This document shows, piece by piece, positions 3,532-9,497 of a stretch of 39,837 bases of DNA. The stretch lies in the UHGV virus genome UHGV-0025829; one strand, written 5' to 3'. The translations under genes and the position numbers were made by a program. Numbering within the stretch: position 1 is the stretch's first letter; every line of letters begins with the position of its first letter. This DNA comes from a virus. Below the pieces are notes generated by a model that worked only from the letters and a program-made list of their open reading frames with translations, searched no databases and was not told where the DNA came from.

Positions 3532-4473
3532 TTACATAGATGTTTCGTTTAATTCTTCCCGACGAACGCTGTAAACGTCGGTGGCTTTTGCCAGCAGTTC
3601 GTCATCATCTGAAAGTTTTTGTGCAATGTATTTGTAAGCCTTATCCAGTTCGGAGACAGTGCTGTAATTCATCGCTGCGCTGGTAAAGGCCATCAGCATT
3701 TCTTCTGGATCACGGCTATCCGATTTACGCGTTTGCTCATCAGGCTTTTTCGCTGGTTTAGCGTTGATCAGACTGTTCATTCCCGCAGCAGTGGTCGTTT
3801 GCGGAGTAATGTCTCGCTCAACGCGCGGTGCCGTTTCCTGTAATTCGTCTGGGGTGTAGACGCCCATGATTACGTCAGGACAGTGCAGGCGAGACCAGCG
3901 TTTTGTCGCAAGGTATGCGAGTTGTTGTTTCGGATCACTGGCCCAAAGTGTGGAGTTTCTTACCTGTGCTTGAGACAGCATTAACTCAAGCACTCGAGGT
4001 TGATCCTCGCCCTTCATGGTTGCCCATACGCGAACACCGCAGCCTTCTTCGTCTTTTAGAGTCCAGCCTGGTGCGATATATGGATTGCCGTTTTTGGATG
4101 TTTTCTCAACAAACTTACCGATCACGCGTTCCCACGGCCCAAACCACTCGTAGTTGATGCGATCTTTTGTTGGCGACATCGTTGAGATAACTGCGTTTAC
4201 TAATTGGGCTTCATAACCTAGCGTGCCGTTCACAACATGGGTTTTCTGAGCCACGGCAAACGGGTTCATTCCCCACTGCGCAGCCTGCATTGCCACGGCC
4301 ATGCAATCAGCTGGTTTCCCGGCGAGGTGCGCCGGTACCGTTACGCGGCTTTGCGCCATTACCTCGGCGAATTTCATCAGTTGGTTCAAGCCGTCTGGGC
4401 TGAAAATAGTTGCAGCAGTTCCAGCGATTGCTGTGTCTACTGGTGCGTTGATGTTTGCGATGTCGTTGCTCAT
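3532..4473 (-). CDS. recT: RecT-family single-strand annealing recombinase
   Basis: RecT-like central region (AQWGMNPFAVAQKTHVVNG...); ATGA overlap with the upstream nuclease gene. Confidence 0.75.
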   Translation of the reverse strand: MSNDIANINAPVDTAIAGTAATIFSPDGLNQLMKFAEVMAQSRVTVPAHLAGKPADCMAVAMQAAQWGMNPFAVAQKTHVVNGTLGYEAQLVNAVISTMSPTKDRINYEWFGPWERVIGKFVEKTSKNGNPYIAPGWTLKDEEGCGVRVWATMKGEDQPRVLELMLSQAQVRNSTLWASDPKQQLAYLATKRWSRLHCPDVIMGVYTPDELQETAPRVERDITPQTTTAAGMNSLINAKPAKKPDEQTRKSDSRDPEEMLMAFTSAAMNYSTVSELDKAYKYIAQKLSDDDELLAKATDVYSVRREELNETSM

Positions 4474-6683: not shown

Positions 6684-6738
6684 TTTCTGGAAAATCGCCT
6701 CATATATGAATCAGTAGATGATTCAATTTAAAGCAATA

Positions 6739-6801
6739 TTACCCAACAGGTAAATGCACCCCATAGGTAACTATCCTTGATTTTTGTTACCTTATGGGTG
6801 A
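6739..6801. promoter_or_regulatory. Right operator cluster: three sites (6739..6753 perfect, 6756..6770 and 6787..6801 half-degenerate) in the divergent promoter region
   Basis: TTACCCAACAGGTAA, GCACCCCATAGGTAA and TTACCTTATGGGTGA between repressor start and Cro-like start. Confidence 0.65.
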
Positions 6802-6837
6802 ATATTTATTATCTGAAATAAATATCAGGCAATAGCT

Positions 6838-7068
6838 ATGAGCGATAACGGACATTTCGATTTCAAAAAGCACTGGCTTGCACTTACTCCGGATGAGCGT
6901 GAAGCCTTCGCACAGGAAGCCGGAACGACGAGTCACTATATCCAGACTCACTTAACAGGTAAGCGCAAAATGCCAGGTAAGGTATTGATGAATGGGCTTT
7001 TTAAAGCCTGTAAAACAAGACAATGGCTGCGCTCAAAAGCAGAACTGGCATACTTCTTCTACTCATGA
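6838..7068 (+). CDS. Cro-like small HTH regulator
   Basis: 76 aa, divergent from repressor, HTH-like segment REAFAQEAGTTSHYIQTHLTGKR. Confidence 0.55.
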   Translation: MSDNGHFDFKKHWLALTPDEREAFAQEAGTTSHYIQTHLTGKRKMPGKVLMNGLFKACKTRQWLRSKAELAYFFYS

Positions 7069-7089
7069 TATCCAGCCACAACCCTCTGT

Positions 7090-7113
7090 AGACCGCCATC
7101 CGGCGGTCTTTTC
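7090..7113 (+). terminator. Rho-independent terminator (tR1-like) after the Cro-like gene
   Basis: Stem AGACCGCC/GGCGGTCT followed by TTTTC. Confidence 0.65.
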
Positions 7114-7123
7114 ATATCTATTC

Positions 7124-7138
7124 GTACCTCAAAGGTAA
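7124..7138. promoter_or_regulatory. Operator-type palindrome GTACCTCAAAGGTAA
   Basis: Motif copy directly after the terminator. Confidence 0.5.
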
Positions 7139-7218
7139 TAAAAAACCAAATATGGTTGATCTTTTTTTTGTGTCAGCACAAAATAACCGTAATCCCAATA
7201 CTAATAACAGGGCTTACC

Positions 7219-7419
7219 ATGGAAATCATTACACGTATTGATGCCGCAAAGCGCGGACTTAAACGCTATTACACCGGAAAACAATGTAAGCACGGACATG
7301 ACAGTGAACGCTGGGTTTACAACGGACACTGTGTTGAGTGCACCATGGAATCAAACCGTCGCATCAGGGCAGAGATTAAGCAGATCATGATTAATTCCTC
7401 CCCACAACACTCAAGCTGA
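7219..7419 (+). CDS. Hypothetical small Cys/His-containing protein (in the position of lambda cII)
   Basis: ATG with SD; 66 aa; C-x-H-x-H...C-x-x-C pattern. Confidence 0.45.
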   Translation: MEIITRIDAAKRGLKRYYTGKQCKHGHDSERWVYNGHCVECTMESNRRIRAEIKQIMINSSPQHSS

Positions 7420-7434
7420 TAGCGGAGATTAATC

Positions 7435-8250
7435 ATGAGCAGACATGCAACAGATTGGGCTTGGGAGACAGATCCAGGCAGCTCATCATTAAAGCTCATA
7501 CTGCTCTCGATGGCTGACAGAGCCGATGAATATAACCTCTGCTACCCCAGCATAGAACGCCTCGTTAAAGACACTTGCCTGAATAAAAAAACCGTGCAGG
7601 CCGGGCTTATATCGCTCATGAAAATGGGGCTTATTTCAGATACCGGAGAGAGAAAGGGAGCGACAAAAAGAGTGCGGGTTTTCTCTCTTAATATAACCAA
7701 AAACGGGAACATTAAAGGCAACCGAGAGGGGGTCAATGAACCCGAAAACGGTAATGTTACCGAAAACGGGAATATACCCAAAAACGGGATGTTGAATGAT
7801 CCCAAAAACGGGATGTTGAATGATCCCAAAAACGGGATCCAGAACCAGTCATATAACCAGTCATTTAACCAAGAGAGGGAGAGCAGGACAAAAAACGGGG
7901 ATTCTGTGCATCATGACCCCGGCGCAAACAACGCCGTGATGAATAACTTTGTTCCTCTTGGTGGGCCAGGGCAATTAGGCAAATTTGTCATGCATGAACA
8001 ATGGCAGCCATCAGATGACTTTCTTCGGAAAAGCTCATTGCAGGGGATCTACCTGGACAGTCTGCCAACGGCACAGGAACTTGCAGAGTTCAGAATTTAC
8101 TGGATGGCTGAGGGTAAGGCATACCATCAGGCACAGTGGGAGCAGAAGCTGGCAAGGCGGCTGCAGATTAGCAGACAGAAGCAATCAACATTACCTGATA
8201 ACAACGTTCCGCACTGGAACAGCCCTGAAGCATGGGAGGATTTCTTGTGA
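7435..8250 (+). CDS. Replication initiator (O-like) with N-terminal winged-helix domain and iteron-bearing linker
   Basis: N-terminus LKLILLSMADRADEYNLCYPSIERLVKDTCLNKKTVQAGLISLMKMGLI resembles phage replication-protein HTH domains; tandem repeats inside the gene. Confidence 0.6.
   Translation: MSRHATDWAWETDPGSSSLKLILLSMADRADEYNLCYPSIERLVKDTCLNKKTVQAGLISLMKMGLISDTGERKGATKRVRVFSLNITKNGNIKGNREGVNEPENGNVTENGNIPKNGMLNDPKNGMLNDPKNGIQNQSYNQSFNQERESRTKNGDSVHHDPGANNAVMNNFVPLGGPGQLGKFVMHEQWQPSDDFLRKSSLQGIYLDSLPTAQELAEFRIYWMAEGKAYHQAQWEQKLARRLQISRQKQSTLPDNNVPHWNSPEAWEDFL
7696..7839 (+). repeat. Iteron array (about six copies of CCRAAAACGGKA at 18 to 24 bp spacing); candidate origin of replication
   Basis: Copies at 7696, 7741, 7759, 7777, 7801 and 7825; two 24-bp units are identical; encodes the PKNGMLND repeats. 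Confidence 0.6.
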
Positions 8251-9032
8251 ACAACGTTTTTACCGCGATACAAAACCGTGACGGAGAAGCCCTTTCTCGC
8301 ATGTCAGGTTATGAGCATCAGTACACCAACAATGACAACGTGGTGAACATGTCAGCAGAGAGGCTTGTTGATGCCCTTTTCAAACAGCTGAAACAACTGT
8401 TTCCGGCGGCAGTGGTAACCAACCTGAAGACGCCAGAGCAGGAAGTTGCTGCAAAACAGCAGTGGATTGCTGCGTTTGCCGAAGGGGGGATCCGAACCCG
8501 TGAACAGGTTTCTGCTGGTATGCGCCACGCCCGCGCCAGTGAGTCTCCGTTCTGGCCGTCGCCAGGGCAATTCATCAAGTGGTGTAAAGACAGCAAGATG
8601 GTTCTTGGCGTCACCATTGACGATGTGATGGCGGAGTTTCACCGGTACAGCAAGGAAAAAAGTTTATATCCTGGTGGTCCCGAAAGATTCCCGTGGCGGC
8701 ATCCGGTTATGTACTGGGTCGTATGTGATACCCGCCGTGCAATGTATCAGCGCCAGCTTAGCGAGATTGAGGTTGAGAAACACGCGCGCAGGCTGCTCGA
8801 TGATTGGGCGAAAAAGGTGGCTTCCGGACAGCAGATACCCGATCCGGTGATCAGCATACAGGCAAAGTCAGAGCCCATGAGTACACCTCCGGACACAGGG
8901 AGAGACGTTTACCATCCACCAGGGCGAAGTTTCGGGTGCATGCCTAACGCCGCCACCCTTGGGGGAATAACACCGGCGCAGTGGCTGATGGAGGAATACA
9001 GGCGGGGAAAGGCGGCAGGATTTATCAAGTAA
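8232..9032 (+). CDS. Replication protein P-like helicase loader
   Basis: Position after the O-like gene; segment AGMRHARASESPFWPSPGQFIKWCK resembles lambda P as recalled; start may be ATG 8232 or GTG 8247. Confidence 0.5.
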   Translation: MGGFLVNNVFTAIQNRDGEALSRMSGYEHQYTNNDNVVNMSAERLVDALFKQLKQLFPAAVVTNLKTPEQEVAAKQQWIAAFAEGGIRTREQVSAGMRHARASESPFWPSPGQFIKWCKDSKMVLGVTIDDVMAEFHRYSKEKSLYPGGPERFPWRHPVMYWVVCDTRRAMYQRQLSEIEVEKHARRLLDDWAKKVASGQQIPDPVISIQAKSEPMSTPPDTGRDVYHPPGRSFGCMPNAATLGGITPAQWLMEEYRRGKAAGFIK

Positions 9033-9069
9033 TACCAGCGCGATAGCGCATTTTTTTACGCCTTGATAA

Positions 9070-9146
9070 TTACCTGATGGGTAACAAAATATTCTAAACT
9101 CTATTGATTTCGTGTCTTATGTGGTTTTTAATTACCTCAGAGGTAA
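9070..9146. promoter_or_regulatory. Two operator palindromes (9070..9084 TTACCTGATGGGTAA; 9132..9146 TTACCTCAGAGGTAA)
   Basis: Both in the 117-bp gap before the 9150 gene; the second overlaps its SD. Confidence 0.55.
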
Positions 9147-9149
9147 ATC

Positions 9150-9497
9150 ATGAGAAAACAGATACAGGCTCTTGGTCGACTCAAAACAGGCCAGATGAAC
9201 AAAACAGAATCTGCGTATTGCCAGCACCTTGAGCAGCGTAAAAGTGCAGGGGAAATCGCCTGGTATCGATTCGAGGGTATCAAGCTGCGGTTAGCTGATA
9301 ACACGTTTTATACGCCCGATTTCGCTGTGATGCTCGCCACCGGAGAGATGGAACTGCACGAAGTGAAAGGGGGATTCTGGACCGACGACGCCAGGGTGAA
9401 AACCAAAGTCGCCGCAGATCAGTATCCGTTCCGAATCATCGGGGTAACGGTTAAACCAAAGAAAGCAGGTGGTGGCTGGAACATCGAAGAGTTCTGA
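9150..9497 (+). CDS. Putative PD-(D/E)xK-type nuclease (DUF1064-like)
   Basis: 115 aa; TPDFAV...ELHEVKGG motif pattern. Confidence 0.4.
   Translation: MRKQIQALGRLKTGQMNKTESAYCQHLEQRKSAGEIAWYRFEGIKLRLADNTFYTPDFAVMLATGEMELHEVKGGFWTDDARVKTKVAADQYPFRIIGVTVKPKKAGGGWNIEEF

Follow-up and report, generated by a model that had tools for sequence, protein, structure and literature searches.

An iteron array inside the initiator gene as candidate replication origin of a phiV10-like Escherichia coli phage

The viral DNA UHGV-0025829 (39,837 nucleotides; "the window" means here this whole stretch) is that of a phiV10-like Escherichia coli phage, genus Uetakevirus, epsilon15 group. Its replication initiator gene (7435..8250, plus strand, 271 residues) codes for a protein with an amino-terminal HTH_36 domain, a repeat-encoded linker and a DnaT-like carboxyl-terminal domain, and carries within the linker-coding DNA an array of short dyad repeats, or iterons. 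This array is probably the initiator-binding part of the phage replication origin, housed inside its own initiator gene. The probability of this reading, which is drawn from comparison of sequences, is put at roughly 0.78. A candidate origin at this place had been proposed in an initial annotation of the DNA and gains support from the comparison: the gene product belongs to phrog_1032 and is followed by a P gene, an array is present in 62 of 69 homologous loci, and it is lost where the amino-terminal domain is swapped.

Organization of the iteron array

The 10-mer CCRAAAACGG starts at positions 7697, 7742, 7760, 7778, 7802 and 7826, always on the plus strand, and every copy extends to CCRAAAACGGKA. 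The six exact CCRAAAACGGKA copies span 7697-7837, within 140 bp, and a one-mismatch match to the 10-mer at 7889 reveals a degenerate seventh copy. Start-to-start spacings are 45, 18, 18, 24 and 24, followed by 63 to the degenerate copy. Tandem Repeats Finder resolves the same region into an 18-bp unit present 2.8 times (7740-7789) and a 24-bp unit present 2.6 times with 100% identity (7777-7838). Matches to the 10-mer with at most one mismatch number 12 in the window versus 4.9 +/- 2.2 in shuffled sequences, and 12 was reached in 0 of 100 shuffles. The sole exact 10-mer found elsewhere in the window is CCAAAAACGG (4088-4097, minus strand; ~0.15 expected by chance), which may be a chance occurrence or an isolated initiator site.

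In their 16-bp form the iterons are TAACCAAAAACGGGAA (iteron 1, 7694..7709, the distal copy located 45 bp ahead of the next one), AACCCGAAAACGGTAA (iteron 2, 7739..7754), TTACCGAAAACGGGAA (iteron 3, 7757..7772), TACCCAAAAACGGGAT (iteron 4, 7775..7790) and ATCCCAAAAACGGGAT, which is found twice (iteron 5, 7799..7814, and iteron 6, 7823..7838). The two best copies have the dyad form ATCCC-AAAAAC-GGGAT, and the remaining ones keep the CCG-AAAA-CGG core. Iteron 5 has perfect 5-bp inverted arms ATCCC/GGGAT around AAAAAC, and iteron 6 can also be read as GATCCC-AAAAAC-GGGATC with 6-bp arms. The degenerate seventh copy, GGACAAAAAACGGGGA (7886..7901), lies beyond a second repeat family described below; its role is uncertain and it is found in only part of the near-identical relatives. 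All copies of the window share one frame of the open reading frame 7435-8250, in which they code for the peptides TKNGNI, PENGNV, TENGNI, PKNGMLND, PKNGMLND and PKNG.

The initial annotation had described about six repeats at regular 18 to 24 bp spacing inside the replication gene. The array is real and consists of six exact copies and a degenerate one. The regular spacing holds for five copies, the first being 45 bp upstream, and the inventory had overlooked both the degenerate copy (7886-7901) and the second tandem repeat (7843-7866).

Three GATC (Dam) sites at 7798, 7822 and 7836 overlap iteron arms, namely the left arm of iteron 5 and both ends of iteron 6. A 60-bp stretch with three GATC is unique in the window, whose total of 160 GATC matches chance expectation, and GATCCC arms are also present in enterobacterial homologues (GF-2, loci L111 and L144). 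Dam or SeqA might modulate initiator binding at the overlapped iterons. Near the array, the search for DnaA boxes gave just two DnaA-like sites, each with one mismatch (7905, 8246), and that for integration host factor (IHF) sites gave no match to the consensus. Minus-strand "terminators" predicted at 7785-7828 were rejected: they reflect pairing of neighbouring iteron arms and their count is no higher than in shuffles.

Conservation of the array in homologous genes

Searches of phage genomes with tblastn gave many matches that cover residues 1 to ~140 of the initiator without its carboxyl terminus, and another set covering the carboxyl terminus only. Arrays of the CCCAAAnnnGGG type are located at the same position after the amino-terminal domain in Edwardsiella GF-2, Vibrio H20, Acinetobacter AP22, E. 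coli PPompW prophages and Burkholderia Bcep176. Their units fall in different frames in GF-2, PPompW and Bcep176: in GF-2, ACC CAA AAA CGG codes for TQKR and CCC AAA ATT GGG for PKIG, and in Bcep176 three frames are used, with spacings of 17 and 22. A genome scan (one genome per species, four-sequence alignment as query) provided 65 further loci from Acinetobacter, Marinomonas, Pseudoalteromonas, Vibrio, Proteus, Providencia, Arsenophonus, Methylobacter, Desulfovibrionaceae, Rhodospirillaceae and Sphingomonadales. Copies of any 9-mer, with at most one mismatch, were then counted in the 300 nucleotides following the amino-terminal domain of the 69 usable loci. At least four copies of some 9-mer are present in 62 of them, which are distant homologues of the domain (from Acinetobacter, Vibrio, Burkholderia, Desulfovibrionaceae and others), whereas equal-sized upstream and downstream controls reach at most 3 and 4 copies. 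At least one spacing is not divisible by 3 in 49 of the 69 loci, whose copies are therefore in different reading frames.

Over the 69 loci the spacings cluster at 17 (52 cases), 18 (20), 22 (27) and 24 (71), and they recur in one order: an optional distal copy 45-46 bp off, two to three copies at 17/18 bp, then two to three copies at 22-24 bp. This order is shared across phyla, by the E. coli window, Acinetobacter, Burkholderia and Desulfovibrionaceae alike. Acinetobacter homologues also have the distal copy, 45-46 bp upstream, and the 22-24 bp end faces the second repeat family. The conserved order suggests a defined geometry of the initiator-DNA complex. Motifs are lineage-specific, all of them dyads (GTACCAACAATGGAAC, GTACCAAAATTGGTAC, GTCGGAAAAATCCGAC), and DNA motif and spacing order are kept between genes of 37% and 61% G+C whose encoded peptides differ. 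The codons of the array oppose local usage (Gly GGG 7 of 9 versus 19 of 78; Pro CCC 4 of 4 versus 6 of 56), counts that are weakened by the common descent of the copies. Because frames vary among homologues, spacing and dyad form persist, and codon choice opposes local usage, selection acts on DNA sequence and spacing and not on the peptide.

Copy number was followed in a sample of 78 near-identical viral contigs, used for this variation and not for diversity. They carry 4-9 iterons and their protein length is mostly 263-295 residues. Each contig has 1-5 of the 24-bp units and 1-3 of the 18-bp units, and two contigs have truncated products of 182 and 231 residues. Among the distant homologues, that of Marinomonas polaris (L092, ~1764-2145) has one iteron-like unit and then neither a family-like array nor the second repeat; this apparent disruption may result from an insertion or from decay of a prophage.

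Linkage of the array to the amino-terminal domain

The initiator is composed of a winged-helix amino-terminal domain (~residues 1-86, 7435-7692), a linker (~residues 87-179) and a carboxyl-terminal domain (~residues 180-265, 7972-8229). Pfam assigns HTH_36 to residues 18-67 (1.8e-10) and DnaT to residues 184-252 (1.1e-15), and the match to phrog_1032, "replication initiation protein", extends over residues 1-269 (2.9e-107). The HTH_36 profile is matched by all 35 aligned homologues, which also give weak cross-matches to generic winged-helix families (DnaD_N in 26 of 35, RP-C in 15 of 35). Residues 180-265 align to DnaT residues 85-170 (PDB 9zbt, 6aep and 4ou6, E ~1e-20). Because this domain corresponds to the single-stranded DNA-binding carboxyl domain of the host restart protein DnaT, databases list the initiator as "primosomal protein I" or "DnaT". 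Identity with full DnaT was discarded, as just the carboxyl domain matches and the amino-terminal two thirds, with HTH_36, are unrelated. A relationship to iteron-plasmid Rep proteins (Rep_3 / RepA WH1-WH2) was likewise rejected, there being no such Pfam match at E <= 0.01.

The array is linked to the amino-terminal and not to the carboxyl-terminal domain. The Uetakeviruses ZX5, Tyrion and SPN1S and the Rac protein YdaU have the DnaT-like carboxyl domain in common, feature an amino-terminal domain other than HTH_36, and have no array. On either side of the initiator gene, ZX5 and HEMP4 match the window at 97-98% identity; they differ in the amino-terminal half of the gene, a sign that the cassette was recently exchanged on a common phage backbone. 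In vB_EcoP_ZX5 (L154, 611-1441), HEMP4 and TL-2011b, flanks and a P gene that share 97-98% identity with those of the window are accompanied by the other amino-terminal half, without an array. The co-occurrence of array and HTH_36, together with the loss of the array upon domain swap, is the best available indirect evidence that the amino-terminal domain binds the iterons.

The reciprocal combination is found in GF-2 (L002, 1501-2343), a natural chimera in which HTH_36 domain, iterons and the second repeat are joined to a lambda-O-like carboxyl terminus (SENSDESSD...PDAAIQ.GTKWGT), with the junction directly after the second repeat, and are followed by a P gene. In AP22 the cassette is joined to a gene for a DnaB-like helicase. 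Amino-terminal domain, iterons and second repeat move as one block and the downstream genes vary. Such a distribution fits the classical modular picture in which the amino-terminal domain would set origin specificity and the carboxyl-terminal domain the partner for helicase recruitment.

Two further loci deserve mention. The SPN1S initiator (L007), with a DnaT carboxyl domain and no HTH_36, is not followed by a P-like gene, and within its gene there are two GTCCGC clusters at 1085-1123 and 1363-1403, each of two direct and two inverted copies, which may be sites for the other type of amino-terminal domain. NZ_CP148379.1 (L158), a circular record of 8,461 bp listed as an E. coli plasmid, has a PPompW-type HTH_36-DnaT initiator (38% identical) and a P gene as sole annotated replication genes, next to a dicA/cro/ydaT set, rem, hokD and defence-like genes. 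It may be a lambda-dv-like mini-replicon, hinting weakly at self-sufficiency of the module, or an assembly artefact.

The second repeat and duplex stability

Directly after iteron 6, the window has a second repeat made of AACCAGTCATAT, AACCAGTCATTT and a degenerate AACCAAGAGAGG (7843..7878), a candidate DNA-unwinding or helicase-loading region. AACCAGTCATWT is present twice at 7843-7866, and phiV10 has three full copies. In 49 of 71 loci the last iteron is directly followed by at least three 12/13-mer units of the RAAYC type (e.g. ACACAGAATCTACCAAAGAATCTATCAATAGAATCTAAAAATAAAAAA), compared with 1 of 69 and 2 of 65 control regions. The consensus is AGAAYCnnYCAww (examples at 1944-1990 of L098, 1971-2005 of L003 and 1927-1965 of L142). 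With their spacings of 12 plus 13, the units do not share a single frame. An A-run, AAAAATAAAAA, comes after them in Acinetobacter and Pseudoalteromonas. To judge from these loci, the 12/13-mer element is better conserved than the iterons, and it would serve in unwinding or helicase loading at the origin.

The least stable 40-mer of the gene starts between -20 and +45 nucleotides from the first 12/13-mer unit in 71% of 55 loci, with a mean z of 2.5. In the window, 7840-7875 (61% AT, z = 1.65) is among the three least stable 40-mers (-48.7 kcal/mol versus a regional mean of -54.0, standard deviation 4.2) and is not the minimum of the gene.

A more specific proposal, which we hold as tentative and rather doubtful, is that HTH_36, iterons in fixed order and the triple 12/13-mer AGAAYCnnYCAww form a widespread, portable origin cassette, the 12/13-mers being more than plain AT-rich DNA, namely a sequence-specific unwinding or helicase-loading element recognised as single strand by, for example, the DnaT-like domain or the initiator. 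The cassette is found in phages and prophages of Gamma-, Beta- and Alphaproteobacteria and of Desulfovibrionaceae. Under the same proposal, and with the same reserve, it would be joined to at least four different carboxyl-domain or helicase-recruitment solutions; the cassette itself is apparently undescribed.

Proposed mode of action

Three features of a lambda-type module are present in the window: a P-family gene is adjacent, the iterons lie between the two initiator domains, and the iterons are dyads with a central A-tract. Dimers of the winged-helix domain would bind the six 16-bp dyad iterons, of consensus ATCCC-AAAAAC-GGGAT, and assemble on the array into a nucleoprotein complex of several dimers, akin to the lambda "O-some". 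This complex would strain and open the adjacent 12-mers at 7843-7878, and the DnaT-like domain, together with the neighbouring lambda-P-like protein, would bring host DnaB to the opened DNA. Rightward transcription from a pR-like promoter would cross the site, as in lambda. We infer binding, complex formation, opening and DnaB delivery from the lambda paradigm, and the transcription step from a match to the promoter consensus only.

Alternative interpretations

Several observations weigh against an origin function of the array. The least stable 40-mer of the window gene is 7678-7717, at iteron 1 and not at the 12-mers. The flank of the array has 61% AT (stability z 1.65) versus 78% in lambda, and the nearby AT-rich intergenic regions 6702-6826 and 9066-9164 are far less stable than the 12-mer region and could in principle house an unwinding site. 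The single frame shared by all copies of the window means that the window alone cannot separate selection on DNA from selection on peptide, and the argument for the former depends on homologues. The 100% identity of the 24-bp units and their polymorphic copy number point to recent slippage, so that not every copy need function. Finally, the amino-terminal domain has no significant similarity to lambda O as far as sequence comparison goes, which makes the parallel one of architecture and not of evident homology.

This last point follows from several comparisons. The window initiator has no match to the lambda O family (PF04492, Phage_rep_O), whereas lambda O itself scores 5.7e-36; weak cross-matches to this profile occur in 4 of 35 family members (best E = 0.0058). 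BLASTP of the initiator against lambda O gave E = 0.066 in an irrelevant segment, and hhalign, run with profiles of 6 and of 35 sequences against residues 1-128 of lambda O, yielded probabilities of 2.7-4.7%. A lambda-O-type, P-interacting carboxyl domain was also discarded, the window carboxyl terminus being DnaT-like and the lambda-O-like version being found in the GF-2 homologue. As neither profile, BLASTP nor hhalign comparison gave anything significant, the initiator is best described as an analogue of O and not as a member of its family. The "O-like gene" of the initial annotation is thus O-like by function and position, without significant similarity to O. Its lambda parallel stands for placement: lambda O, too, has its iterons in the DNA for the linker between its domains (PMC7466680, PMC3349717). 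For the adjacent AT-rich unwinding region that it suggested looking for, the 12-mer element is a candidate, though only moderately AT-rich in the window.

The alternative that survives best, although we consider it improbable, is that the iterons are control sites (for autoregulation, titration, handcuffing or incompatibility) and that opening takes place elsewhere, for instance in the AT-rich intergenic DNA at 9066-9164, downstream of the P-like gene, or in the immunity region. It draws on the moderate instability of the 12-mer region beside the much less stable 9066-9164 and 6702-6826, and on two precedents: a cloned lambda iteron fragment inhibits replication in trans (PMC3349717), and some iterons of Stx phages are weakly bound yet needed (PMC7466680). 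However, no copy of the motif is found near 9066-9164 or 6702-6826. The triple 12/13-mer, often with the A-run, directly follows the iterons family-wide and has the lowest stability within the gene in the 71% of loci mentioned above, and amino-terminal domain, iterons and 12/13-mers travel as a block while downstream genes differ.

Binding of the array by another protein, either a host factor or a different phage DNA-binding protein, instead of by the initiator amino-terminal domain is very unlikely. The GATC sites on three iteron arms would allow Dam or SeqA to act, and the A-tract centres could draw nucleoid proteins. The array nevertheless tracks HTH_36 from Enterobacterales to Desulfovibrionaceae and Sphingomonadales, its motif changes with the lineage of the domain, and the neighbouring phage genes are not conserved across loci. 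A host factor fits poorly because the motif follows the phage domain across very different hosts.

Least probable of all is a neutral or peptide-level role, in which slippage would have produced a flexible PKNG linker without any DNA function: the single frame of the window copies, the identical 24-bp units and the indel tolerance seen among near-identical phages (4-9 copies, 263-295 residues) speak for it, and it is largely refuted by the reading-frame analysis (different frames in 49 of 69 loci), besides which motif and spacing are kept at 37% and 61% G+C, dyad symmetry is typical of DNA sites and not of peptides, codons oppose local usage, and the linkers of relatives with a different amino-terminal domain have no array.

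Genomic context

Positions 7100-9100 of the window are 98.9% identical to phiV10, whose gp43, likewise at 98.9% identity, is the counterpart of the initiator. A prophage of enterotoxigenic E. coli (ETEC) H10407 carries the same initiator gene at 100% identity, and homologous genes (90-100% DNA identity) are present in 424 of 5,426 complete E. coli genomes (~8%). It is followed by a gene for a helicase loader of the lambda P family (8232..9032, plus strand; Pfam Phage_lambda_P PF06992, 1.5e-56; phrog_109, "P-like helicase loader"). The annotation of phiV10 gp44 implies for this gene a GTG start at 8247, which overlaps the initiator stop codon.

Upstream of the initiator gene is a divergent repressor/cro-like pair. 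Its region includes a pR-like promoter candidate, TTGTTA-17-TATTAT (6784..6812, plus strand), identified by consensus scan only, whose transcript would read rightward across the initiator gene and the array. An intrinsic terminator (7090..7109, plus strand), also annotated in phiV10, precedes the replication genes at a place like that of tR1. As a whole, the region is arranged like the immunity-replication region of lambda. An Rfam search of 7000-9300 found no known RNA family.

Relevance

The location of an origin inside the initiator gene is a principle known for decades in lambdoid phages. A specialist would not be surprised by the present arrangement, because conceptually it is lambda again. 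Its interest is rather in the precise candidate origin that it provides for phiV10-like phages (Uetakevirus), which are used as reporter and typing phages for O157. The labels "primosomal protein I" and "DnaT" conceal a predicted origin-binding initiator, and a simple rule emerges for finding origins next to HTH_36 initiators, including those of the "Eru" modules. The conserved spacing order and the 12/13-mer triple could, in addition, teach how such origins open.

No description of iterons for phiV10, epsilon15 or HTH_36-type initiators was found in the searchable literature, subscription papers being outside this scope, so that an earlier description is possible. HTH_36 proteins are listed in a survey of Stx-phage replication modules, but iterons are not mentioned there, and no origin is mentioned for the non-lambdoid "Eru" type of replication module found in some Stx phages (PMC8951638).

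Comparison with known origins

The four iterons of ori-lambda, ATCCCTCAAAACGAGGGA, ATCCCCTAAAACGAGGGA, ATCCCTCAAATTGGGGGA and ATCCCTCAAAACAGGGGG, are located inside gene O, 20, 24 and 23 bp apart from start to start, and an AT-rich tract comes next (PMC3349717, PMC7466680). The window resembles lambda in having the candidate origin in the middle of the initiator gene, in the DNA for the linker between the DNA-binding amino-terminal domain and the carboxyl-terminal domain. It also resembles lambda in its dyad iterons with an A-tract centre and TCCC...GGGA arms (ATCCCTC-AAAAC-GAGGGA in lambda ATCCCTCAAAACGAGGGA, ATCCC-AAAAAC-GGGAT in window ATCCCAAAAACGGGAT), in spacings of ~18-24 bp, in a region of moderately low duplex stability on the promoter-distal side, in the P-family loader encoded next, and in the pR-type promoter candidate upstream. 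It differs in that the initiator features HTH_36 and a DnaT-like domain and no Phage_rep_O. The TCCC-to-GGGA core is 14 bp in the window versus 17 bp in lambda (3 bp shorter), six or seven copies replace four, and the flank is made of 12-mers at 61% AT, whereas that of lambda is a 38-bp tract at 78% AT.

Stx phages have six iterons compared with the four of lambda, adding 13 residues to O (PMC7466680). As in 933W and P27, the extra iterons of the window are in-frame peptide repeats and the copy number differs among close relatives (PMC7466680). Unlike the window, in which protein family and iteron sequence are different, 933W and P27 carry a true lambda O and ori.

The E. coli oriC, like iteron plasmids, has a tandem 13-mer unwinding element beside the initiator sites. 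The ~three 12/13-mers of the window likewise adjoin the array, and they are found at a local stability minimum in most family members, as in tandem-13-mer unwinding elements. They differ from oriC by having no sequence similarity to its 13-mers and by their location inside a coding region, their unwinding being only predicted. Unwinding elements of plasmids are treated elsewhere (PMC4081077, PMC4980987). With E. coli DnaT, finally, the likeness is confined to the carboxyl-terminal 85 residues (E ~1e-20), and the window gene codes for a predicted phage origin-binding initiator.

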